A model generated the notes under the pieces. The model did not search any database and had not been told where the DNA came from. It saw only the letters and a list, made by a program, of their open reading frames with translations. From Gemmatimonadota bacterium (lineage in GTDB: Bacteria; Gemmatimonadota; Gemmatimonadetes; Longimicrobiales; Gaopeijiaceae): a stretch of DNA of 64,000 bases. The stretch lies in the NCBI GenBank assembly GCA_034521595.1, contig JAXHMG010000003.1, forward strand, positions 2,464,001 to 2,528,000, in the 5' to 3' direction. Positions 18,962-30,856 of the stretch are shown here, in pieces (positions within the stretch are counted from its first letter, which is position 1; every line of letters begins with the position of its first letter). The position numbers and the translations under genes were made by a program.

Positions 18962-21900
18962 TCAGAAGCCGATACGAACGCTGAACGTGTAGCGCGTGGG
19001 CACACCCGGACGCCAACCGTCGATGCCGTACACGAAGTTGCTCGTGTCACCACTCGGGCTCGTGACGACGTTGCTCTCCGGATCGATGCCGGAATACTTC
19101 GTCCACAGCTTCAGGTTACGGCTCGCAGCCGTGACGGTCATGCGGTCGATGCCGAGGCCTTCGATGGCCGAACCCGGGACCTGATAGGTCAGGCCGAGCT
19201 CACGCCACCGGATGTAATCGGCCTCCTCGATCTTGTTCGTTCCGTCCCAAGGAGACAGCCCCGCGTGCTCTCGCCACTCGTTCGCGGCCGCCACCTTTTC
19301 GTCCGGTGACGCGTCCGGATTCGTGAGCGTGGACTCGATCTCCGCCGTCTCCCGGGTGTTCCGCCCCAACAGCCAGTGGGAGGCGCGGAACTCGCCGCTC
19401 AGGTTCTGGCGATGGAAGTTGCCGAACGCGTAGTCGAATTGAGTGGTCAGGCGGAAGCTTCCCAGAAAGGAGAGCGTCCCTCCGAAGGAGCCCGACCAAT
19501 CCGGCATGGGCTTTCCTCGGAAGAACTCACCGTCCGGCCCTTGACCACCCGTCGCCGGGAGAAACGCGAGATCGTCGGGGCTCACCGAGGGATTGTCCAC
19601 GAAGAACTGCCGCAGCTCGTCCTCGGAGTCCGGTTGGCCGTCATTGTCGTTGTCGTAGGCAGTCTCACCGGCCTGCGGCTCATAGATCTTGCGGCTGAAG
19701 AACGAGCCCGGTGCGTGCCCCTCCACGATCCACGTCCGGTACCGATAATACCCGACCTTGATCGCGGGGGCCTCGCCCATGTCCGTGACCTCTTCCTCGG
19801 TGTACGCAGCGTTCACGAACATGTCGAAGCCGGCGTTCGACGTGTTGAACAGCGTGCCGTTCATCCCGAGCTCGAATCCGGTCGCCTTCATCTCACCCAG
19901 GTTGAAGAGCTGGGTCGACGTGAAGCCACCCGACGGCGGGAACTGCCGCGGGACCAGCACGTCGCTGACCGTTCTGTCCCAGTACGTCGCGTCGAGCGAG
20001 AAACGGTCGTCCAGAATACCGAAGTCGCCACCGACCTCCCACTCGGTCGAAACCTCCGGCCTCAGGTCTTCATTACCGAGGTTGTCCGGCCCCACGCCGG
20101 GGCCTTCCACCGAGGGAACCGGTTGGAACGTGGTGAACTGGTCGAAAGCGCCGGGCTGCAATCCGGACCGTCCGACCGCTGCACGGAACCGGACCGAGCT
20201 GAACGGCCCGATACCGTCCATGCCGGCCATATCGGTCGGCACGACCGACACACTGACCTTCGGGTACAGCTCTCCGCCCGCGGTCTCACCGAACGCGCTA
20301 TGCTTGTCGTACCGCGCGCCGAGCGTGGTGAAGATGAAGTTGTTGAAGCCCAGCTGTTCCTGGACGTAGACTCCGGCGTTCACCTCCTGGTTGACCGTCT
20401 CGCCCGCGCTCGGCTCGGAAGCCGCCCCCGTGACCTCGAGGCCCGGTGCAGGAAATGCGAACCCGCTGCTGAAGTTCTCGTGGTACTCGTTTTGGAGGAG
20501 CTGCGCGCCCAGGATGAACGACGACGTGATATTTTCGGTCAACTCGTTGTCGTACACCGCCTTCGCGTCGAATGTGATGTTCCGCCGGTTGTGCGTGCTG
20601 AAGTCGCGCTCGCCCTCGGGGGCGGTGTTGGCGAAGTCATCGACGTTCCAACCGAAGCGCTGAAAGTCGATCTCCTCCGACGACACGATGTCCACGCCGA
20701 TGGTCGCATCCAGCGTCAGTCCCTCGAGCGGATTGTACTGCGTGTTGACGCTTCCGGCGAACCGCTTGGTCTCTTCGAACTGCTCGATGTTGAACATCTC
20801 GCGGATCGTCGCGAAGGTCCCCGTTCCCGTCGGGTTGTTCTCCCGAGCGAGCTCCGGCTTCGCCATGATCGACATGGAGAAGGTTCCGGTCGTGTTGTTC
20901 CCGTTGGTCGGGACTTCGTGGTAGCGCTCGGTATACATCGAGTTGAAGCGCAACCGGAGATCTTCGGTCGGGAAGAAGGTCAGATTGGCGGTCGCCTGCT
21001 TCTGCTCGTCGACATCCTGAGCCGGACCCCACTGCTCACCGCCGAAGGCGCCGTCCTCGTAGGCGTACCGGCCGGAGACGTAGTAGTTGATGGATTCGGT
21101 ACCGCCACGCACCGACAGGCTGTAGGCCTGGTTGAATCCGGTTTCGAAGAGCCCGTCGAGCAGCGGCGTGTCGAAGACCTCGTACCGACCGAGGGAACCG
21201 AGCCCCCAGTGGTCCGCAACGGCGTCCGCGTGCTCCTGACTGCATCCATCGCCCGGCCACAGAGCCGAGCCGGCCTGGCTGCAAACGAAGCCGGAGTGCT
21301 GCGCGTACCGCTCCATCGGCATCTGAGAGAAGCCGCCCTCGGCGGTCATCTCCCACTGCGGGTCCCCTGCCTGGCCCCGCTTGGTGAAGATCTGGATGAC
21401 CCCGTTGGACGCTTCGGTCCCGTACAGGGTGGCGGCCGCCGCACCCTTCAGGATCTCCACCCGCTCGATCGACTCGGGGTTGATGTCATCGAGGCGGGAC
21501 GCCGCGCCCGCGTCTCCGTCGTCCACGGCGTTAGAGACCCTGATGCCGTCGACGTAGACGATCGGGTTGTTGCTCTGGGTGAGCGACGAGGTGCCACGGA
21601 TACGGATCTCGGAACCTTCACCGGCCATGCCGCCGCTCTGTGCGACCGACACCCCGGCGGTGCGCCCCTGCAACTGCTCGGAGAAGTTCGCCGTGGGCGC
21701 GTCCTGGAGCTGCTCCATGTCAACCGCCGAAACGGTGTTGCCGAGACGGCGACGCTCGGTGGCCTGCCCGGCCCCGGTAATGACGAGCTCGTCGAGCTGA
21801 ACCGCGCTCGTGGAGAGCTCGAAGTCGAGCTGGGCGGTCTCACCGTCCGCGACCGTCACGGTCTGCTCGGCCGAGCCGTAACCCACGCGGTCCACCGAGA

Positions 21901-22150
21901 CGGTGACCTCGCCGGCCGGCACCTCGAGAAGAAGGTAACGCCCGGACGAGTTGGTGAGCGTCCCGAGGCTCGTGCCTTCGACGAAAACCTGCACGGCATC
22001 GAGCGGGCGCATGCTACTGCCGTCGACCACGGTACCCGTGATCGACCCTTGCTGCGCGGCCACGGCGCCCGGCAAGAACGCCAGGACGGCGGCCGTCAGC
22101 AACGCCCGTGATTGCCCTCGTGCTGCTTGGACAAACGCGTCATGAAACAT
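18962..22150 (-). CDS. SusC/RagA-like TonB-dependent outer membrane transporter
   Basis: CarboxypepD_reg-like N-terminus; LDELVITG TonB box; plug signature DINPESIERVEILKGAAAATLYGTEASNGVIQIFTK; C-terminal RIGF; RBS GGGAGG before ATG 22150. Confidence 0.93.
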   Translation of the reverse strand: MFHDAFVQAARGQSRALLTAAVLAFLPGAVAAQQGSITGTVVDGSSMRPLDAVQVFVEGTSLGTLTNSSGRYLLLEVPAGEVTVSVDRVGYGSAEQTVTVADGETAQLDFELSTSAVQLDELVITGAGQATERRRLGNTVSAVDMEQLQDAPTANFSEQLQGRTAGVSVAQSGGMAGEGSEIRIRGTSSLTQSNNPIVYVDGIRVSNAVDDGDAGAASRLDDINPESIERVEILKGAAAATLYGTEASNGVIQIFTKRGQAGDPQWEMTAEGGFSQMPMERYAQHSGFVCSQAGSALWPGDGCSQEHADAVADHWGLGSLGRYEVFDTPLLDGLFETGFNQAYSLSVRGGTESINYYVSGRYAYEDGAFGGEQWGPAQDVDEQKQATANLTFFPTEDLRLRFNSMYTERYHEVPTNGNNTTGTFSMSIMAKPELARENNPTGTGTFATIREMFNIEQFEETKRFAGSVNTQYNPLEGLTLDATIGVDIVSSEEIDFQRFGWNVDDFANTAPEGERDFSTHNRRNITFDAKAVYDNELTENITSSFILGAQLLQNEYHENFSSGFAFPAPGLEVTGAASEPSAGETVNQEVNAGVYVQEQLGFNNFIFTTLGARYDKHSAFGETAGGELYPKVSVSVVPTDMAGMDGIGPFSSVRFRAAVGRSGLQPGAFDQFTTFQPVPSVEGPGVGPDNLGNEDLRPEVSTEWEVGGDFGILDDRFSLDATYWDRTVSDVLVPRQFPPSGGFTSTQLFNLGEMKATGFELGMNGTLFNTSNAGFDMFVNAAYTEEEVTDMGEAPAIKVGYYRYRTWIVEGHAPGSFFSRKIYEPQAGETAYDNDNDGQPDSEDELRQFFVDNPSVSPDDLAFLPATGGQGPDGEFFRGKPMPDWSGSFGGTLSFLGSFRLTTQFDYAFGNFHRQNLSGEFRASHWLLGRNTRETAEIESTLTNPDASPDEKVAAANEWREHAGLSPWDGTNKIEEADYIRWRELGLTYQVPGSAIEGLGIDRMTVTAASRNLKLWTKYSGIDPESNVVTSPSGDTSNFVYGIDGWRPGVPTRYTFSVRIGF

Positions 22151-22420
22151 AGGGCCTCCCCTATCAAGGAGTGGTTGGGCCATGCTCGGCCCTTCGGTTA
22201 CAGGCGGTCGCTCACCGCCCGAGCTGTGTACCTCGAGTACCTGCACGTGGGCACGCGACCCGCACCCAGCTCTGGGAGCCTCGAGTGTCGAGTGCGCGCA
22301 GCGCGGATCACCCGGTGCGCAGCTTTGGCTCTGGAAGCGGCTGTGTCAAGGAATCGTGCAGAGCAACGCACGGGGACCGGAGCTATCGATCGGACGCATG
22401 CCCGTCGACCCTCCGTGCCA

Positions 22421-22660
22421 TCAGCCTCCGAGAGCCCGGTCGATCATGCGCTGGATGAGCTCCGGCCTCAGCGCCCGCGGATCGGTATAGGTGGGCCAGG
22501 GGGCCCGGAAGGTGACCGCCTCGCACGTGAACTCGAATCCGGCCGGAACGTCGCCCTGGTCGGGTTGGTCACACCCGACCACACGGGCGTCCCGGCCGGC
22601 GGATCGCCACACGATCCGCCACGTGACACCGTCTCGGTCACGAAACTCGAAGTCCGTCAC
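22421..22660 (-). CDS. Small hypothetical protein (~79 aa)
   Basis: GTG after a G-rich RBS; compact sequence FEFRDRDGVTWRIVW...LIQRMIDRA. Confidence 0.5.
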   Translation of the reverse strand: MTDFEFRDRDGVTWRIVWRSAGRDARVVGCDQPDQGDVPAGFEFTCEAVTFRAPWPTYTDPRALRPELIQRMIDRALGG

Positions 22661-22760
22661 AATCCCCCCAGAGTGAAGCGTCGCCCGTTTCACTAAAGTG
22701 AATCGACGACGCCTGTTTGTCACGAGTCTCGTTGCAGCACGGGCGCGGACGACCCCTCTG

Positions 22761-22795
22761 AAAAAGGCCCGGGAGCCGCTGTGCGGCCCCCGGGC
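22761..22795 (-). terminator. Rho-independent terminator after tRNA-Lys
   Basis: Minus strand GCCCGGGGGCCGC-ACA-GCGGCTCCCGGGC followed by CTTTTT. Confidence 0.8.
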
Positions 22796-22799
22796 GCAG

Positions 22800-22872
<73 letters not shown>

Positions 22873-22886
22873 ATCGGGAGCCCTTT

Positions 22887-22914
22887 AAGGTACGTTCGGG
22901 GAACACCCGGTCAA
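22887..22914 (-). promoter_or_regulatory. Putative sigma70 promoter for tRNA-Lys
   Basis: TTGACC-16 bp-TACCTT, 14 bp upstream of the tRNA 5' end. Confidence 0.5.
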
Positions 22915-22931
22915 GCTTTCGCGCCCACCGG

Positions 22932-23324
22932 TCACGGTGAGGGGCCGTCACCGGCATCGTCCCGAAGCAAGGAGGCTCCCGGCTGGAGCGCTCGCGCCCG
23001 GTCGAGTGCCTCCGCGGCGGCGCTGTCGTTGCCGAGTGCCCCTTCCGCCATGTACACGCCGAACCAAGCCGCGGCGACCGCGTCGTCGATCTCGACGGCA
23101 CGCCGGTAATGCTCCACGGCCGCCTCGGGCGCTCCGGACCGCATCGCGACGTTCCCGCTGTCGAGTTGGGAGACCAGGGCCTGTGGCAAGGCGTCTCTCG
23201 CCTCCCGCACGGCGTCCGGCGTAACCGAATCCGTGCGCTGATCATCCTCGCGACATCCCCCGAAGACCACGATGACCGCGACGATCGCCATGACGCTACG
23301 GAGCGCACGAACCTGCTCGAGCAT
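22932..23324 (-). CDS. TPR-like lipoprotein; last gene of the cytochrome operon
   Basis: Lipobox FGGC; helical TPR-like segment (AVEHYRRAVEIDDAVAAAWFGVYMA); starts 3 bp after the cytochrome stop. Confidence 0.7.
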   Translation of the reverse strand: MLEQVRALRSVMAIVAVIVVFGGCREDDQRTDSVTPDAVREARDALPQALVSQLDSGNVAMRSGAPEAAVEHYRRAVEIDDAVAAAWFGVYMAEGALGNDSAAAEALDRARALQPGASLLRDDAGDGPSP

Positions 23325-23327
23325 TAG

Positions 23328-24776
23328 TCAGGATCCTCCCACCGGGTTACCCACGTGACACGCGAGACATGTTCGCGGCGAAGTCGCCCACGCACGCTCC
23401 GCGTCGAACGACGGACCATGCGGGCTGACCCTGAACGAGCCCAGAACCCCGTGACACTGCACGCAGTCGCGTTGTTGGTGGCACGAAGCGCAGCTCTCCA
23501 GGTTCTGCCGGGCCGCCTGTCCGTGGCGAAGGAGCCAGACGGGCTCGGCGTCGTGGTACCCGGATCCGAGTCGGCCGGAGCTCTCGAATCCGCTTTCCAG
23601 ATGGCAGGCGCGACAGAATGCGGCCGTTTCGTGGCAGGTAGCGCACTCGTCCGCGCGACCGAACGCAGCGGCCGCGTGCGTCCCCACGAAATCCGCGGGG
23701 TGATAGCTGTCCCCGGCGGGAGCGTCGTGACAGTCCGTGCAGTACCCGTCGGTGTGGCAAGTGCCGCACGTCGATTCGTCGGCCGCCGCCAGAGTCGAAT
23801 GAGCCTCCATGAAGAACGGCGACTCGTGGGTCCCCGGAGCCGACGCGGTGAGCCCCACGCCTGGAGCGTGCACGTCGGCACGCCTCGGCAGGGCGTCGAC
23901 CACGGCCGGCGCCGCGCTCACGTGACACGCCCGACAGTCCTCGGTCGTGTGGCAGGTGTTGCAGGATCCGGCATCGGACACGGGAGCGTGTCGTTCGCTC
24001 CATCGCGCTCGAGAATGTGACTCGGGAACCGGATAGGCCGCGGTCACCGGTGGGAGCTCGAGGTCGGGGGGGGCGGAGGGCATGGCCGCCACTGCGGGTT
24101 GGCCCGCATCCACGTGACAGGAGACGCACCGCTCTTCGGTATGGCACGTCGCACACCGGGCTGTGCCCTCCGAGGCGGAGGCGCCGTGGTCGCTCGCGAC
24201 GAATCCCCCGGTCAGGTGATCCCTCGGAACCGGAAGGCCGGTGATGCGCTCTACGGAGAAGCGACTGTCCGACAGTGGGACGTGACACATGGCACATTCA
24301 GCCGTGCCTTCGGGGACGGACTCGAAGTGACCGTCCGGCTCGCCGGCATGGCATGCGAAGCATGCGCTTTCGACCACCCGAGCCTCGACGTCCATGCGCG
24401 CGGCATCCGGCTCCGCGTGACAGCTCTCGCAGCTTCGGGGCGGCTCCCCCGCCGTCTCGAGATCCGCCGCGTGCGTGGCATGGTCGAATAGGACGTTGCT
24501 CGAGGTGTCGCTCGGCCCGGACCAGGATACCGCCGGGAGATCCACGTCGTCGTGACAACGGGCGCAGAGCTCCGCCTCCGGGTAGCCGGGAGCATCCCCG
24601 GCAGCGGGGGTGGTGTGGCATCCGGTGCAGACCGGGAAGAGTCCCGCGTGTTCCTCGTGGGGGAAGGGCTCCTCCTGGACGCTGCCGACCCCGGCCGATA
24701 CGACGCCCGTCAGAGCCACCGCGCCCACCACACCGACGCCGAGCGCGCCCAGCCGCAAGCTTCGAATCACGCTCAT
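23328..24776 (-). CDS. Secreted 16-heme c-type cytochrome
   Basis: 16 CxxCH motifs; N-terminal signal/hydrophobic stretch; ATGA overlap with the porin stop. Confidence 0.92.
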   Translation of the reverse strand: MSVIRSLRLGALGVGVVGAVALTGVVSAGVGSVQEEPFPHEEHAGLFPVCTGCHTTPAAGDAPGYPEAELCARCHDDVDLPAVSWSGPSDTSSNVLFDHATHAADLETAGEPPRSCESCHAEPDAARMDVEARVVESACFACHAGEPDGHFESVPEGTAECAMCHVPLSDSRFSVERITGLPVPRDHLTGGFVASDHGASASEGTARCATCHTEERCVSCHVDAGQPAVAAMPSAPPDLELPPVTAAYPVPESHSRARWSERHAPVSDAGSCNTCHTTEDCRACHVSAAPAVVDALPRRADVHAPGVGLTASAPGTHESPFFMEAHSTLAAADESTCGTCHTDGYCTDCHDAPAGDSYHPADFVGTHAAAAFGRADECATCHETAAFCRACHLESGFESSGRLGSGYHDAEPVWLLRHGQAARQNLESCASCHQQRDCVQCHGVLGSFRVSPHGPSFDAERAWATSPRTCLACHVGNPVGGS

Positions 24777-26194
24777 CGCTGACCACCGCGTCGTCCGGAC
24801 AGACCCGGGTCTTCGCCCAACGTGACACGCAGCGACGACCACCCACGGTTCTGACTCCATGGCCGGTCGCCGCCATCGTCCGCATATCGATGCCGAAGCA
24901 CCGAGTAACCGCCCCGGAAGGAGAGGCGGTCCGTCAGTTGGGTGCCCGCCGACACACCGCCTCCCCATGCGCGCCCGTCACCGAGCCGGTACTGCTCGAT
25001 TTGCTGGAGCGTACGGGCGGAAATCGTGACGAACGTGTCGTCGGACGGCGTCCACGCCAGCCGGGTCTCGCCCGACGACAGGTAGCCGCCGGGGCCCCAT
25101 TCGAGCTCGTATGACACACCCGCGGACCAGGCGTCGCCCGGCGTCCACGTCGCTTCCAGGCCTGCGCGGCGTCCGCTGTCCTCGAGCGGTCTCAGAACGA
25201 CCGTCGTGCCCGCGGCTCCGTATCGTCGGACTCCGACGGATCCCTCGACCCGCCACGCATCCCGCGGAGCCCAGCCGACGCGGACCGTGCCTTCGGTATA
25301 GGCGACCGGCTCGAACAGGCCCCAGATGGTGGAAAGAGAGAAATACGGAACGTACCGGGCCGCCGATGCCTCGATCATGCCGCGAGCTCCGTCGAACGGA
25401 CGGGACAGGGTGAGGTGCCCCTTGCCGACCTCCCGCCGGGCGACATCGTAGTCCAACGAGCCCCGGAGCGTCCCGACGGACGAGCTCCAGCTCATATCCA
25501 GCGACGCGCGTTCCGAAGCGAGCCCGGAACGGTCGGCGAGGATCTCGCGGTGGTAGCGGGCCGTCATCGACAGGGCCGAGATGCGTCCGCGGGCGGATGC
25601 ACCAACGAGGTACACACTCTGGTCCGGCAGGAAATCCTCCAGGCCTCGCAACGCCTCATGGGCGGGATCGCGCAATCCCCTGGCGAGACTCCGTCCGCCG
25701 TATGCTTCAACCCGGATCCGGGGTCGGCTCCAGCGCACCATGCCACCGTCGAAGGACGGGAAGCCGAGTCCCGAACGCACTTCCTGACGCCCCACGCGCA
25801 CGGTGAGCTCTCCCCGCGCCAACGCCGCGTAAGCGAGCATGGCGTCGAAGGGATCGTCGGCCCGCGGCCATTCGAAGGCTCCTGCGACACGCTGTCGGGC
25901 ACGGAGCTGAACGGTCGCGCTCAGCCCCTGGACGCCCAGCCCCCAGGCGGTGAAAAAGAGGTCCTGGTTCGCGACGACCGCCAGCTCTTGATCCGCGCTC
26001 GTGTAGCACGGAGCGTCCGACGGACACGTGGCGGCGACCCGCTGGACCGGCCGCATGTCGACGAGCTGAGCCGAAGACCCGACCCACCCTCGGCCCTTCT
26101 GAGCCTCCGCTTCACCAGCAGCCCCCCCGGCGAGGGCCGCAACCGCAGCGATGCACCCGACCCACCGCCACGATGCGCCGACGCGGGGGCGCAC
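24773..26194 (-). CDS. Predicted outer-membrane beta-barrel (porin of a porin-cytochrome complex)
   Basis: Signal peptide ending AEA-Q; many alternating amphipathic strands rich in G/R/aromatics (e.g. LTVRVGRQ, WSAGVSYELEW, LSFRGGYSV); sits between cytochrome genes; RBS AGGAAGG before GTG 26194. Confidence 0.72.
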   Translation of the reverse strand: MRPRVGASWRWVGCIAAVAALAGGAAGEAEAQKGRGWVGSSAQLVDMRPVQRVAATCPSDAPCYTSADQELAVVANQDLFFTAWGLGVQGLSATVQLRARQRVAGAFEWPRADDPFDAMLAYAALARGELTVRVGRQEVRSGLGFPSFDGGMVRWSRPRIRVEAYGGRSLARGLRDPAHEALRGLEDFLPDQSVYLVGASARGRISALSMTARYHREILADRSGLASERASLDMSWSSSVGTLRGSLDYDVARREVGKGHLTLSRPFDGARGMIEASAARYVPYFSLSTIWGLFEPVAYTEGTVRVGWAPRDAWRVEGSVGVRRYGAAGTTVVLRPLEDSGRRAGLEATWTPGDAWSAGVSYELEWGPGGYLSSGETRLAWTPSDDTFVTISARTLQQIEQYRLGDGRAWGGGVSAGTQLTDRLSFRGGYSVLRHRYADDGGDRPWSQNRGWSSLRVTLGEDPGLSGRRGGQR

Positions 26195-26211
26195 GACCGC
26201 ATCCTTCCTGC

Positions 26212-27936
26212 TCAAGGGGCCCCCACCCGGAACCCCGGACCGGTCATTGCGTGGCATTCCGCGCAATCGCCTTCGGGGCGGTGGTCGCGCTGATCCTGAT
26301 GGCAGACCAGACAGACGGAACGGGTCCGCTCGACGCTCTCGAACGGCGCATCCTGGTGGCAGCCGCTCCCGCCACACCCCACGTGCGCCGTTTCCACGCT
26401 ATGTGCATCCGGCGCGGCGGGCTCGTGGCACGACGCACAGTCGTTACCCGGATCATGGTGCGCCTCGTGACACGACGCGCAGTCCGCGCCGCTCGCGGAG
26501 CGGGTTGGATCATCCGTGTGGCAGGTCGCGCAGCGCTCGCCGGCATGGACGGCATGATCGAACGGGAGGCCGCGTCCGGGGCGCTCTCCGACGGACAACA
26601 CGAGCGTTCGCGTCACCTCCAGGGTCTCGGAGGTGCCGCCCGTCTCGGCATGGCACGTGGCGCAGTCTCCGGCCTCCGGCTCGGTATGATGACAGCTTCG
26701 GCAGTCCGTCACGGTCGTGACCGTGAGCGACCCGTGCTCGGGCTCACTCGCATGGCACGCGGCGCACTCGACGTCCCGGTGCTCGGTATGCTCGAACGGG
26801 GGCTCTTCCTGGCGGGCAGCGCTCGGGCTCCGGGAAGGCGAGACGGTCGTGGGGGACGAGCCGAGCGCCGCATGCGCGGCAAGGAGAACCGCGTCGCTCC
26901 GGGTGGATCCGGCGGCACTCCCCACGGTTCCGGGGTGGGGGCGCGTGCCGGATGGATTCCCGGCCCCGGCCGACGTTTCCGTGTCATCGAAAATGTCCGT
27001 GTGGCACGCGAGGCAGTTGTCGCCGTCCACGTGAAAATCGTGGGCCTGGTGACAATACATGCAATCCGAGGCCACCCCTTCGTCCAGACCCCGGTGAAAG
27101 GGTGTGAGCGCTTCAGCGTCCGTGTGACACCCGGCGGACGCACAGCTCTCGGCAGCCTCTTCGGGCGTCGCCTGCTCGTGGGGATTGTGACACGATGCGC
27201 AGGTGCCCTCGTGCGGATCGTCGTCCGGCATCGTCGCCATCGCCTGCATGGCGTGGCAGGAAAGGCACGTATCCTCGTTCGGGGCGAGCGCGGCCAACGC
27301 CGCTTCCGAACCCTCGGCGTCCACGGTCGTGTTGAAGCCGTGACAGGCCGCGCAGTGGATCGTCAGGTCACTCATTCCCCCGAGCTCGATCCCGGTGTCC
27401 TCGTGACATCCGGCTTGCGCGCACGTCCGGTCGCTCGCCGCGAACTCGTGCAGCGAGCTCGAATGGCACTCCACGCACTGCAACCCTTGAAGCGCGGGGT
27501 CGTCGGATTCGAGGTGCGCCCGGTGGCCCGCTGTCGCCGCCACGACCTCCCATCGCTCGGGGTCGCCCTCGATGTGGCAGTCGGCGCACAACCCGTTCGG
27601 CACTTCGGCGTGCACTGAAATCTCGTCGGGATTCTCGACGAACTGGGTGAGCCCCATGCGGCTCCGCTCGATCAGGTTCGGCTGATGGCAGTCCTTACAG
27701 CTGAGATCCTGGTGGGCGCTCCGGGCGAACCGTTCGTACGGTTCCGCCATGAGATGGCACGACAGACAGAAATCGTTGTCGTGCTCGACGAAGTCGTAGG
27801 TCTGGTAGGCGTAGTAACTCCCGGTCCCGGCCAGCGCCACCACGAGCACGCCCACGCCCGCGAGCGTAGGCAGCGACAACGTGGCGAGCCACCGGGCAAT
27901 ACGGCCCCGAGCCGGAGGAGGAGGGTCCGGAGGCAT
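26212..27936 (-). CDS. Membrane-anchored NapC/NirT-type cytochrome extended to 20 hemes
   Basis: N-terminal TM helix, then FCLSCHLM; 17 CxxCH + 3 CxxxxCH motifs. Confidence 0.9.
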   Translation of the reverse strand: MPPDPPPPARGRIARWLATLSLPTLAGVGVLVVALAGTGSYYAYQTYDFVEHDNDFCLSCHLMAEPYERFARSAHQDLSCKDCHQPNLIERSRMGLTQFVENPDEISVHAEVPNGLCADCHIEGDPERWEVVAATAGHRAHLESDDPALQGLQCVECHSSSLHEFAASDRTCAQAGCHEDTGIELGGMSDLTIHCAACHGFNTTVDAEGSEAALAALAPNEDTCLSCHAMQAMATMPDDDPHEGTCASCHNPHEQATPEEAAESCASAGCHTDAEALTPFHRGLDEGVASDCMYCHQAHDFHVDGDNCLACHTDIFDDTETSAGAGNPSGTRPHPGTVGSAAGSTRSDAVLLAAHAALGSSPTTVSPSRSPSAARQEEPPFEHTEHRDVECAACHASEPEHGSLTVTTVTDCRSCHHTEPEAGDCATCHAETGGTSETLEVTRTLVLSVGERPGRGLPFDHAVHAGERCATCHTDDPTRSASGADCASCHEAHHDPGNDCASCHEPAAPDAHSVETAHVGCGGSGCHQDAPFESVERTRSVCLVCHQDQRDHRPEGDCAECHAMTGPGFRVGAP

Positions 27937-27959
27937 GCGGCGTCACCCGGAAAACGCGG

Positions 27960-29390
27960 TCACCGACTCCCTCGGACCTCGCTCGAGCGTGCCGGAGCAC
28001 CGAGGCCGTACCTAGACTCCACCTCGTCGATCGTGGCTTGGAGCAATGCCTCGATGAGGAACGGGTTGTGCACCGCCGCCCCAGGCGAGCGCGCGAGCTC
28101 GAGGTTGAACTGCGCCCCTTCACCCACCGTGTACCGGTCGTCCGTCTCGTCGAACTCGCTTTCGGGGATCTGAGCGATGAGGGATTCGAGATCGTCGGCG
28201 TCGCCGGCGATCCGGTTCTCTGCATTGATTTGCAGGTTACGGGCAACGTCCGCGGACCCGTGGCAACCCGAAGCCGTGCACCCCTGGTAGGAGCGTTCCT
28301 CCGGCTGACATCCGTCCGCGCCGGTGGGGATGCCGTCCGCGTCCACGCATGGCGTCGCCTCGAACGAGTGCCCCGTCGACTGGAAGACGAGCTCCTCCGT
28401 GTCCTGGTCGACGATCTCGAACGACTGCACGTGACACGACGCGCAGAGGCCCGGGTTCGCTTCCGGAGTCCCGTGCGTGCCGACGAGGCGCCCGCCCGGG
28501 AAGCTCATATCGGACGGCCACCATCCGGCCACGCCGAGCAGCGTGGGGCCCTCCGGAGCATGCGGGCCCCGGAACGTGGTGGGATCGGGGGTCCCGCGCT
28601 TGTTGTGGCACATCATGCAAAGGTTCTGATCTTCGTTCGGCACGTTCGTGGCGAACCTGAGCTGCGCCGGGTTGTCCGAGCCGTGAGGATCGTGACAGAC
28701 CGCGCAGGTGATCGAAAGGTGCTCACCGTCTTCTGCGACGTCGTCCTGTTCGAGGTACGTGGTGTTCACCCCGAACATCTCGAGGGCACCCTCGCCCGTG
28801 TGGCAACTGGAACAATCCGCTCTACCGGCCGGATAGGAGTTGAACTGTCCGTGGCCGGATTCCGACCATTCGTCGGCGAACGGATGGTGCGCGCCCTGAT
28901 GGCACTCGGCGCAGCCACTGGTGAGATCCAATCCCACGTCCATGGGAGCGGAGGGGACCGTGGCATCGTTCGGGTCCTCGACGTGAGCGAGCCCTGGGCC
29001 GTGACACGCCTCACACTGAACGTCCTCGTAGCGCGCTTCACCGGTCGCTGCGTGTCCCATCGTGCCCGTGGTCACGTTCCCCAGCTCGCCCACCGTGTGG
29101 CAGCCTTCGCAAAAGCCCTGGGCGTGCCCGCTGTCCTGCAGGCCATCCCAGGCCGACGCGTGGGCGGTTTCGACCCAGTCCTGCTGCGTGCCGATGTGGC
29201 AGTTGCCGCAGACCGTGAGCTTGTCATCGCTGTCGCTGTAGCCGAGAAAGGACCCGGCGGCGTCGAGCGGATCTTCGAACAGCTCACGGTCCCGGAAGAC
29301 CACTTGCTCGTCGACGCAAGCGGCGGTCGCGACGAGGGAGCCGGCAACGATGCTCAACAAGGCCACGCGCATGATTCGAGTCGGCATCAT
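27960..29390 (-). CDS. 9-heme c-type cytochrome lipoprotein
   Basis: Lipobox TAAC; 8 CxxCH + CTASGCH; helical C-terminus with AVHNPFLIEALL. Confidence 0.9.
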   Translation of the reverse strand: MMPTRIMRVALLSIVAGSLVATAACVDEQVVFRDRELFEDPLDAAGSFLGYSDSDDKLTVCGNCHIGTQQDWVETAHASAWDGLQDSGHAQGFCEGCHTVGELGNVTTGTMGHAATGEARYEDVQCEACHGPGLAHVEDPNDATVPSAPMDVGLDLTSGCAECHQGAHHPFADEWSESGHGQFNSYPAGRADCSSCHTGEGALEMFGVNTTYLEQDDVAEDGEHLSITCAVCHDPHGSDNPAQLRFATNVPNEDQNLCMMCHNKRGTPDPTTFRGPHAPEGPTLLGVAGWWPSDMSFPGGRLVGTHGTPEANPGLCASCHVQSFEIVDQDTEELVFQSTGHSFEATPCVDADGIPTGADGCQPEERSYQGCTASGCHGSADVARNLQINAENRIAGDADDLESLIAQIPESEFDETDDRYTVGEGAQFNLELARSPGAAVHNPFLIEALLQATIDEVESRYGLGAPARSSEVRGSR

Positions 29391-29671
29391 CCGGCTCCAC
29401 TCCTTCGGCTGCGGTCAGGTGGCGGTTGGCACGGGTTCCCGTGCCACGACGTGGCGTCGGCAGCCCGGCGGCGTCCGAAGCCTCCGGGATTTCCCTGATT
29501 CGACCGGGGGGAGGGTGTCCGTGATCTTACGGACCCGGCACACACTATGTTGGCACGGCGGGAGGCACGGCCGCAAGGGCCACGCCCGTTCGCATGGAGC
29601 ACGGCCCGAGCCGGGCGGCGCGATTTACCAGCTAAACCGCGCCGTCCCTGCTCGAACGGAGCGTCGGCCGC

Positions 29672-30856
29672 CTAAAAGGCGCTTAGGCCCGTGACGGCCT
29701 GACCGAGGATCAGCGAGTGGATGTCGTGCGTCCCTTCATACGTGTAGACGGACTCGAGGTTGGCCATGTGCCGCATCGAATGGTACTCGACGAGGATGCC
29801 GTTCCCTCCGAGCAGTCGTCGTGCCTCGCGCGCCACATCCGTGGCCATGTCGCAGTTCGCCCGTTTCGCCAGGGACACCTGCTGAGGCGTCATCGTGCCG
29901 TCGTCCTTCATCCGGCCGAGGCGGTAAGACAGGAGCTGACCTTGCGTGATGCTCGTGAGCATGTCGGCCAGGCGAACCTGCTGGATCTGCTTTCCGCCGA
30001 TGGGCGTGTCGAACATGACCCGCTCCTTCGCGTAGGACCGGGCCTCGTCGAAGCAGGCCATGGCCGCGCCGACGACCCCCCAGGCGATCCCGTAACGCGC
30101 CTGTGTCAGACACATCAGTGGGTGCTTGAGTCCTCGCGTGCTTTCGGGCATGAGAGCGTCGTCCGGCACCTCCACGTCCTCGAGCACGAGCTCGCTCGTG
30201 TCGGAGGCCAGAAGGGACAGCTTTCCCTTCTGGTCGCGTGCGCTGAATCCCGGGGTGTCGGTGGGCACCACGAAGCCCCGGATACCTTTCGGATCCCCGA
30301 GCTCACCGGTCTGCGCCCAGACCACGGCCACGTCCGCCATGGACCCGTTCGTGATCCACATCTTGGCCCCGTTGAGCACCCACCCGTCCGACGTCTTCTT
30401 GGCCGTCGTGACCATCCCCGACGGGTTGGAGCCGTAGTCGGGCTCCGTGAGCCCGAAGCACCCTACGGCCTCACCGGTGGCGAGCTTCGGCAACCAGGTG
30501 GTGCGATGCTCCTCGCTTCCGAACGCGAAGATCGGGTACATGACCAGCGCGCCCTGAACCGAAACGAACGAACGGATCCCCGAGTCGCCCCGCTCGAGCT
30601 CCTGCATGATGAGCCCGTAGGCCACGTTGTTCAGCCCCGCGCATCCATACTTCTCGGGCAGGTTCGCCCCGAGGACGCCCAGCTCCCCGAGCTCGGGAAT
30701 CAGCTCCTTCGGAAAACGCCGTTCCGTGTATGCCTCTCCGATGATCGGCATGAGCCGGTCGTCGACCCAGGAGCGGACGGTATCCCGCACCATGCGCTCT
30801 TCGTCGGAGAGCAGGGAGTCGATGTCGTAAAAGTCGATACCTTCGAAGCGCGCCAT
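29672..30856 (-). CDS. gcdH: Acyl-CoA dehydrogenase, glutaryl-CoA dehydrogenase-like
   Basis: ELERGDSG, GCFGLTEPDYGS, LNGAKMWITN and NLESVYTYEGTHDIH. Confidence 0.82.
   Translation of the reverse strand: MARFEGIDFYDIDSLLSDEERMVRDTVRSWVDDRLMPIIGEAYTERRFPKELIPELGELGVLGANLPEKYGCAGLNNVAYGLIMQELERGDSGIRSFVSVQGALVMYPIFAFGSEEHRTTWLPKLATGEAVGCFGLTEPDYGSNPSGMVTTAKKTSDGWVLNGAKMWITNGSMADVAVVWAQTGELGDPKGIRGFVVPTDTPGFSARDQKGKLSLLASDTSELVLEDVEVPDDALMPESTRGLKHPLMCLTQARYGIAWGVVGAAMACFDEARSYAKERVMFDTPIGGKQIQQVRLADMLTSITQGQLLSYRLGRMKDDGTMTPQQVSLAKRANCDMATDVAREARRLLGGNGILVEYHSMRHMANLESVYTYEGTHDIHSLILGQAVTGLSAF

Follow-up and report, generated by a model that had tools for sequence, protein, structure and literature searches.

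A predicted 45-heme porin-cytochrome operon as a candidate quinol-to-surface electron conduit in Gemmatimonadota

Can a bacterium from a lineage not classically regarded as electroactive encode, in one operon, a route for electrons from its quinol pool across the outer membrane? The question is raised by five genes, here g1 to g5, at positions 22932-29390 of a 64,000-nucleotide stretch of a Gemmatimonadota genome (the window; contig JAXHMG010000003.1, positions 2,464,001 to 2,528,000, assembly GCA_034521595.1), which encode in that order a lipoprotein cytochrome, a membrane-anchored cytochrome, a predicted outer-membrane barrel, a secreted cytochrome and a small lipoprotein. Although members of this phylum abound in soils, sediments and saline habitats, little is known of their physiology under anaerobic conditions or at redox interfaces, and to our knowledge electron conduits to the cell surface are not among the traits known from it. 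An original prediction, made from the DNA letters alone, had proposed an uncharacterised extracellular electron transfer system in a lineage guessed to be Gemmatimonadota. The guess is borne out by the relatives found in database searches, and the proposal gains computational support from a co-fold of barrel and secreted cytochrome and from phylum-wide synteny. The operon is probably a Gemmatimonadota-specific porin-cytochrome conduit that would connect the quinol pool across the outer membrane, working outward or in both directions; confidence in the g3-g4 module alone is higher than in the conduit as a whole.

The five genes follow one another on the minus strand with gaps of 23, 17, -4 and 3 bp, as obtained from the list of open reading frames (ORFs) and a script. 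A hairpin of 13 pairs, 12 of them GC, followed by a T-run, lies 137 nt past g5 at 22795-22767. The tight gaps and this terminator-like hairpin agree with the placement of all modules in one operon (Table 1). Heme-binding motifs number 8 CxxCH and 1 CxxxxCH in g1, 17 and 3 in g2, and 16 and 0 in g4, giving 41 CxxCH and 4 CxxxxCH, or 45 sites (9, 20 and 16), with none in g3 and g5; the gene coordinates, the gaps and the 9-, 20- and 16-heme counts had all been given exactly beforehand. The motif density of the cluster far exceeds chance. Only six ORFs of at least 80 aa (stop to stop) with at least three CxxCH exist in the 3.49-Mb genome and three of them are g1, g2 and g4, so that the cluster is the organism's sole large multiheme cytochrome set. 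Public gene callers give the same 473-aa (P0001) and 482-aa (P0121) products for g3 and g4. The public call for g2 has 555 aa (P0391), 19 residues fewer than the 574-aa ATG form, the start of which is supported by ortholog N-termini. The g3 gene starts with GTG, with AGGAAGGA ahead of it, and a scan of 22200-29800 returned 0 sigma-70-like sites, such a scan being uninformative for this phylum.

The barrel protein stands apart from all families searched. It has no Pfam or NCBIfam match at E<=0.1, PF11854 (MtrB_PioB) included, and no PDB sequence match at E<=10; PF11854 has 0 matches anywhere in the genome, which is 93% complete. Among 8000 scored candidates, 517 are related to it at E<=1e-3, those with names being without exception a 'hypothetical protein' of Gemmatimonadota or Longimicrobiales. 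A g3 profile collects 398 cluster representatives at E<=1e-3 among 1.84 billion, 168 of them at E<=1e-30, and in the ESM Atlas g3 falls only among unnamed Gemmatimonadota clusters. The AlphaFold2 (AF2) model, built from 33 sequences (pLDDT 79.2, pTM 0.71), consists of a signal helix followed by 22 long antiparallel strands. In a structure search independent of Foldseek, 22-strand TonB-dependent transporter barrels rank first at Z 18-19.7, led by a SusC-like protein (5t3r_D, Z 19.7, 373 residues aligned), FyuA (Z 19.0) and BtuB (Z 18.9); the g3 barrel is of their size but lacks a plug domain. MtrB (6r2q_B) follows at rank 25 of the wide structural search with Z 15.4 and an rmsd of 7.2. Foldseek returns only generic porins, AlgE and ushers at TM 0.3-0.46, from which no specific family could be assigned. 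Together with a signal peptide ending AEA before Q and an alternating hydrophobicity, the strand number and the structural matches give g3 the general marks of an outer-membrane barrel, as had been expected of this product, and it models as a 22-strand barrel of a new family, outside MtrB/PioB.

The strands of g3 show a dyad pattern, and in the alignment their polar, lumen-facing side is more conserved than the side facing the lipid. Mean identity is 0.63 in the long loops, 0.58 in the strands and 0.38 in the short turns, reaching 0.89, 0.88 and 0.83 in loops 282-297, 139-146 and 220-224. This pattern is opposite to that of ordinary porins and suggests a conserved partner held at the lumen and the long-loop face. 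The first long loop also contains the invariant Cys57 and Cys63; MtrB, too, has a Cys pair near its N-terminus, which in that protein is needed for function.

The reading frames of g3 and g4 share 4 bp, the start of the second lying over the stop of the first, and the two products are predicted to fit together. Co-folding of g3 residues 31-473 with g4 residues 33-482 (33-row alignment each, no hemes), part of the modelling proposed with the original prediction, gives ipSAE values of 0.74, 0.77 and 0.75, against 0.00 for the best control. The complexes have 355-378 contacts, of which at least 70% agree between runs, at a partner pLDDT of 72-74. In the calibration of the tool, the co-fold mark is reached by 116 of 157 solved complexes and by 2 of 215 mismatched pairs, counts that apply here only roughly because the alignments were custom-made. 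On the g3 side, contacts involve alternating strand residues around the whole barrel and almost all of the long loops; on the g4 side they involve residues 257-473, which hold 9 of the 16 CxxCH motifs. The best-defined pairs join g4 328-332 to the short-turn ends of g3 strands 8-12, and g4 426-435 to loop 282-297. In the model, the C-terminal nine hemes of g4 would thus lie inside the barrel lumen, with the cytochrome sheathed by g3. If the g3 termini and short turns face the periplasm, as in other outer-membrane barrels, g4 would run from a periplasmic N-terminus to a C-terminus outside. For its 16 hemes g4 has exactly 16 invariant non-motif His, as expected of an all-bis-His wire. Matches of g4 to ActA and QrcA are weak; they were judged generic c7-type similarity, and neither identity was retained.

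At the inner membrane, the candidate entry point is g2. Directly after its N-terminal helix follow CxxCH motifs at residues 57, 80, 117 and 154, and a 30-sequence g2 profile matches the NrfH structure 2j7a_C with E 1.8e-9, the CxxCHxM motif of heme 1 being aligned; some Gemmatimonadales orthologs have another residue in place of this Met. PF03264 is found in many orthologs, which NCBI and JGI name 'NapC/NirT family cytochrome c' or 'nitrate/TMAO reductase-like tetraheme cytochrome c subunit'. The 20-heme protein with a transmembrane anchor, as first described, therefore also has a NapC/NirT/NrfH-like module. The other 16 hemes are similar to those of Hmc, nine-heme cytochromes and c3/c7 units, and this tail is distantly homologous to g4 (hhalign probability 99%, E 2e-18). 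Ligands for the 20 hemes are offered by 19 invariant non-motif His, a nearly invariant Met63 and 3 nearly invariant non-motif His, and the ligand counts of g4 and g2 fit wires for electron transfer only. An HmcA-like periplasmic complex was considered and set aside, as the Hmc and nine-heme likeness is confined to the g2 tail and leaves the barrel unexplained.

The outer end of the path would be formed by g1, in which a lipobox is found in 57 of 60 orthologs. Its profile matches OmhA (6qvm, E 1.8e-18, positions 91-446) and OcwA (6i5b, E 8.2e-15) best of any family, followed more weakly by the Mtr complex chain 6r2q_A (E 4e-7), HAO (E 3e-6) and octaheme nitrite reductase (ONR; E 4e-5). Foldseek finds only three matches at E<=1e-3 for the g1 model, 6qvm_A and 6i5b_A/B, at TM 0.43-0.44 and an identity of ~18-20%, with E-values of 0.03 or worse for NrfA and ONR. 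The model has the three C-terminal helices typical of the OcwA/OmhA family, and 8 invariant and 1 nearly invariant non-motif His could serve its nine hemes, the alignment to OcwA being fragmentary. On sequence and fold similarity over most of the protein, g1 is assigned to the OcwA/OmhA clade. According to passages of PMC9250108, Gram-positive iron reducers carry OcwA (9 hemes) and OmhA (11 hemes) as cytochromes on the cell surface. Within the NrfA/ONR/HAO/MccA/c554 superfamily the two form a sub-clade, which is defined by two penta-coordinated hemes with conserved distal His pairs. These nearest characterised relatives favour a surface terminal reductase, while the superfamily keeps an enzymatic reading alive. 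In the Atlas fold search, g1 meets an Ignavibacteriota cluster (TM 0.66) in which 98% of 1184 members have a Por_Secre_tail sorting domain.

A possible sorting signal follows the lipid Cys of g1, where orthologs read V/T-D-E-K, with D/E at +3 in 91% and at +4 in 74% of the 57 lipobox orthologs. In the portion of PMC5080379 at hand, the lipoprotein export signal of Bacteroidetes is described as a polar or basic residue followed by two acidic ones near the Cys, sufficient for surface exposure, with the acidic residues at +3/+4 in B. fragilis. The acidic pair of g1 resembles this signal and is the sole lead for a surface location. In a crude scan, 26 of 141 lipoprotein-like N-termini of the same genome have an adjacent acidic pair at +2 to +6. 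The placement of g1 on the cell surface is taken to be an even chance. The second lipoprotein, g5, has a lipobox in 40 of 45 orthologs, with the consensus C-R-P-D-D-Q after the signal peptide. It had been called a TPR lipoprotein; the lipobox half of this description stands, and the TPR half falls just short of the Pfam cut-offs (TPR_2 26.5 vs 27 bits, TPR_14 23.3 vs 23.5 bits).

With g3 as a probe, the system can be followed across Gemmatimonadota. Matches occur in 19 of 41 close relatives, the source genome counted, and in 180 of 401 sampled genomes of the phylum, representing 79 of 146 genera. The distribution is patchy: the family to which the window belongs has matches in 11 of 69 genomes, a different family in 116 of 166. 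Of 78 public g3 loci, 76 are titled Gemmatimonadota, Gemmatimonadetes, Gemmatimonadales, Gemmatimonadaceae, Gemmatimonas or Longimicrobiales, and 2 'uncultured bacterium'. Synteny was read from the 51 loci with at least 3.7 kb upstream and at least 2.1 kb downstream of the barrel, the other 27 having short flanks or a partial barrel. There, g1 stands upstream of the barrel in 48 and g4 downstream in 49, with g5 present in 35. The state of g2 varies: 34 loci have the 20-heme gene, 6 an intermediate one and 4 a short one with 9 hemes, and in 7 none is adjacent. As g2 is variable and g1 and g4 are nearly constant beside the barrel, the invariant core is g1-g3-g4. Heme counts are almost invariant at 9, 20 (17+3 or 18+2) and 16. 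The survey of related genomes suggested at the outset thus finds both gene order and heme counts conserved across the phylum.

Several variations on this layout were seen among the loci. Instead of the NrfH head, the short g2 forms have a signal peptide; in L077, L081, L083, L092 and others, g2 is replaced by a secreted 9-heme form of 240-285 aa. Eight loci contain, past g5 and on the same strand, an extra ORF matching ~185-231 g2 residues. This ORF is not in the window, where g5 is followed by the terminator and a 100-aa ORF. Tandem duplication of g1 occurs in some loci, and in some genomes the barrel cluster itself has paralogues, giving two or three clusters in all.

The path proposed from these results starts at the inner membrane, where g2 would be anchored by its single helix, its NrfH/CymA-like tetraheme head exchanging electrons with the quinol pool and its 16 further bis-His hemes extending into the periplasm. 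From g2, electrons would pass to the seven N-terminal, periplasmic hemes of g4, and the nine C-terminal g4 hemes would carry them across the outer membrane, sheathed by the plug-less 22-strand g3. They would then exit to a surface-exposed g1, or straight to soluble acceptors. Most likely docked at the outer face, g1 would serve as terminal reductase for acceptors that are insoluble or large, such as Fe(III)/Mn(IV) minerals, humics or other cells, with g5 as an accessory lipoprotein for assembly or docking. In this scheme we infer the hand-over from g2 to g4, the surface position of g1, the outward flow and the substrate. To the host, probably an aerobe, the conduit would be of use at redox interfaces, or possibly in taking up electrons.

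A bolder form of the proposal concerns the width of the periplasm. In the accessible part of the review PMC7096707, MtrCAB with its 20 hemes measures ~170 Å and the periplasm ~200 Å; MtrA cannot bridge the gap, and shuttles are needed. At ~8.5 Å per heme, the 20 hemes of g2 and 7 of g4 would extend over ~230 Å, so that by this rough geometry a wire without shuttles is conceivable. All 45 hemes might then form one hard-wired path from quinol pool to surface, with no soluble shuttle, g2 meeting the seven periplasmic hemes of g4 and g1 being exported by an FCB-type acidic signal. If this were true, the phylum, a major one in soils and sediments, would be broadly electroactive by means of its own conduit family, the barrel being present in ~45% of sampled Gemmatimonadota genomes. 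This extended version is tentative and, taken whole, rather doubtful.

Several observations weigh against a quinol-fed conduit ending in g1. Since 7 of 51 loci have no adjacent g2 and 4 of 51 have a g2 without the NrfH head, the quinol link is not universal. The window's own g2 aligns to positions 4-138 of 138 of the NCBIfam NrfH model TIGR03153 (E 6.3e-8), scoring 32.8 vs a cut-off of 134.2 bits, and reaches 18.1 vs 24.1 bits for Pfam NapC/NirT PF03264. The barrel lacks a C-terminal aromatic residue. The success of the g3-g4 co-fold is support for binding, not a demonstration of it, the model being heme-free and built on custom-made alignments, and memory of the solved MtrCAB complex may bias the prediction. 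For g1, the AF2 model is moderate (pLDDT 70.0, pTM 0.68) and its TM values to OcwA and OmhA are 0.43-0.44. The superfamily of g1 includes the periplasmic enzymes NrfA, ONR, HAO and MccA, and OcwA itself reduces nitrite in vitro, as reported in an extract of PMC9250108, which leaves room for a catalytic, periplasmic g1. The genome encodes two heme-copper oxidases, which makes the host probably an aerobe, and no RNA run is found among the sequencing runs that match the stretch.

The oxidases also lend themselves to the same architecture running inwards, with electrons taken up from Fe(II), Mn(II), a reduced mineral or a cathode and delivered to the quinone pool or the aerobic chain, as proposed for MtoAB-CymA and PioAB; oxygen could then be the sink. 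Excerpts of two papers fit this direction, one proposing NapC/NirT proteins as quinone reductases in iron oxidisers (PMC6295460), the other describing porin-cytochrome clusters as common in iron oxidisers (PMC5566968). Against it, the characterised proteins closest to g1 are terminal reductases of metal reducers, and MtoAB, PioAB and PCC4 are presented without an outer cytochrome in the excerpt of PMC5566968. Direction is not derivable from sequence alone; an operon devoted to uptake is considered unlikely, and outward or bidirectional transfer is preferred. A further reading takes g1 and g2 as an NrfHA-like periplasmic quinol:substrate reductase for nitrite, hydroxylamine, NO, sulfite or a similar compound, in which a membrane-tethered g1 would be catalytic and g3-g4 would have another or an auxiliary role. 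In favour of it, NrfA has NrfH as its partner, to which the g2 head is similar, and g1 has the HAO and ONR profile matches noted above and belongs to the NrfA/ONR/HAO/MccA/OcwA superfamily, all members of which show nitrite or NO reductase activity in vitro in the text available from PMC9250108. Yet g1 is kept beside g3-g4 where g2 or the NrfH head is missing, its conserved non-motif His equal its hemes in number at 9, and it is matched best by far by OmhA and OcwA; a periplasmic reductase would also leave the cytochrome that threads an outer-membrane barrel without a function. This reading appears quite improbable. The same threading bears on a third possibility, that no conduit exists: g3 would be an ordinary solute porin, as its top Foldseek matches to general and specific porins would allow, and the cytochromes would be periplasmic electron stores or capacitors co-encoded by chance. 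Against it stand the conservation of the lumen-facing residues and long loops beyond that of typical porins, the adjacency of g3 and g4 in 49 of 51 loci with their overlap in the window, and the co-fold at 0.75 vs 0.00, which together leave it very improbable.

The remainder of the genome and the surroundings of the operon add the following. CcmE (System I maturation) and one secretin are present, and no ResB was found in the genome. Outside the window, C3:2124290-2124784 encodes a small NrfH/NapC-like ORF with three CxxCH, the first motif being CxxCHxM. At C3:3047462-3048133 lies a 5-heme ORF of ~224 aa, ActA-like (alternative complex III) as judged by eye, and at C3:563519-565516 an unassigned 666-aa, 5-heme protein. 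The neighbours of the operon, namely genes for a TonB-dependent receptor, an acyl-CoA dehydrogenase and an isocitrate/isopropylmalate dehydrogenase, are unrelated to it. The receptor gene just downstream (18962-22246, minus strand; 1094 aa) has a CarboxypepD_reg N-terminal domain and SusC-like architecture and is apparently unrelated. Between it and the terminator, a 100-aa ORF (22421-22723, minus strand) has no Pfam match and may not be a gene. Two runs of a single salt pan metagenome sample, perhaps the source sample, contain near-identical DNA for 22932-29390 (shares 0.96 and 0.81), and small, unverified shares of the region appear in two sediment metagenome runs.

Table 1 Features of the operon and its borders in the window
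Feature	Coordinates	Strand	Description
g1	27960-29390	(-)	476 aa, ATG, lipobox ending Cys25; nonaheme lipoprotein, OcwA/OmhA-like; candidate surface terminal cytochrome
g2	26212-27936	(-)	574 aa, ATG; 20-heme cytochrome, one N-terminal hydrophobic helix
g2 modules			NapC/NirT/NrfH-like tetraheme at ~residues 32-163, then 16 c3/c7/Hmc-like hemes
g3	24773-26194	(-)	473 aa, heme-free predicted outer-membrane beta-barrel, ~22 strands, new family
g4	23328-24776	(-)	482 aa, ATG; 16-heme secreted cytochrome, predicted to thread barrel
g5	22932-23324	(-)	130 aa, ATG, lipobox FGGC; TPR-like accessory lipoprotein
Terminator-like GC hairpin and T-run	22767-22795	(-)	marks operon 3' end
Upstream intergenic region, 281 bp	29391-29671	(-)	between g1 and acyl-CoA dehydrogenase gene; presumed promoter site

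A literature search on multiheme, porin-cytochrome and OcwA topics found no paper describing this cluster in Gemmatimonadota. The available portion of a 2026 karst paper reports porin-cytochrome clusters in metagenome-assembled genomes of Gammaproteobacteria, Acidobacteriota, Planctomycetota, Chloroflexota and two candidate phyla, and does not name Gemmatimonadota. The barrel family, an OcwA-type lipoprotein combined with a barrel in a diderm, the 16-heme insert and the fusion of an NrfH-like head to 16 hemes appear undescribed in the literature searched. As the barrel matches no family model, iron-gene surveys based on Mtr, Pcc and Cyc2 models would miss the system. Being compact (6.5 kb, five genes) and self-contained, it is testable by heterologous expression and attractive for bioelectrochemical engineering.

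Set against known systems, the operon differs from MtrCAB in several parts. The crystal structure of MtrB has 26 strands, whereas g3 models with ~22 and has no MtrB_PioB match; g4 has 16 hemes, not 10; g1 is a 9-heme cytochrome of OcwA type; and the quinol module is fused to 16 more hemes and lies in the operon, together with the extra TPR-like lipoprotein g5. The mismatch to decaheme MtrA and the larger MtrB pointed out in the original prediction is thereby upheld. In the consulted part of the review PMC7096707, MtrB is predicted to have 28 strands, and MtrCAB shares with the operon a lipoprotein cytochrome gene upstream and, as far as predicted here, a periplasm-facing multiheme cytochrome inside an outer-membrane barrel and a feed from a NapC/NirT-type quinol dehydrogenase, which in Shewanella is CymA. 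Stretches of g1 (E 6.9e-13) and g2 (E 1.4e-6) match the heme packing of the DmsE/MtrA decaheme model TIGR03508, below its cut-off (48.6 and 28 vs 192.2 bits), and g4 gives no match. Against the OmcA/MtrC model (TIGR03507), g1, with nine heme sites in place of ten, reaches 13.6 vs 209.3 bits; for the Geobacter decaheme family GSU2203, g1 scores 32 and g2 15.6 vs 325 bits. The comparison with profile models of characterised families thus places the barrel outside MtrB_PioB and no operon cytochrome at the cut-off of any characterised decaheme family in NCBIfam, so the operon is not an ortholog set of a known complex.

Other systems share single features with the operon. With OcwA of Thermincola potens and OmhA of Carboxydothermus ferrireducens, g1 shares its best profile matches, and with OcwA its nine heme sites; those proteins sit on Gram-positive walls or S-layers, whereas g1 is a diderm lipoprotein co-encoded with a barrel. 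The g2 head is like NrfH and CymA in its N-terminal helix, its four CxxCH and its heme-1 motif, and unlike them in its fusion to a 16-heme extension, this copy also scoring below the curated cut-offs. The periplasmic and lipoprotein cytochromes of the Geobacter clusters have 8 and 12 hemes, vs 16 and 9 here. The Geobacter OmbB-OmaB-OmcB and Ext systems likewise combine a barrel, a periplasmic cytochrome and a lipoprotein cytochrome, as described in sections of PMC6295460 and PMC5566968. They are without a quinol dehydrogenase and, compared by gene content and heme counts, are set apart from the operon. As far as the excerpt of He et al. 2017 (PMC5566968) goes, PCC3 and PCC4 unite a porin, very heme-rich cytochromes and an inner-membrane redox part in one cluster proposed to span the envelope; they occur mostly in Proteobacteria and have a conserved protein of five transmembrane (TM) helices with two HX13H motifs, the PCC3 cytochromes having median heme counts of 34 and 21 and PCC4 being without an outer cytochrome. 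The operon has no 5-TM protein with HX13H motifs, the flanking genes being those for the TonB-dependent receptor and the acyl-CoA dehydrogenase; only g2 has a membrane helix, a single one, and the inner-membrane part is instead an NrfH-like c-type cytochrome. In conclusion, the functional logic of the predicted conduit is that of MtrCAB/CymA and Geobacter Pcc/Ext, with membership in MtrB_PioB, DmsE/MtrA and OmcA/MtrC not found. If functional, it would raise to four the types of porin-cytochrome solution that are unrelated in sequence, and would be the first of them to end in an OcwA-type cytochrome in a diderm; its g2 would be a case from nature in which a quinol dehydrogenase and a long heme wire are fused.

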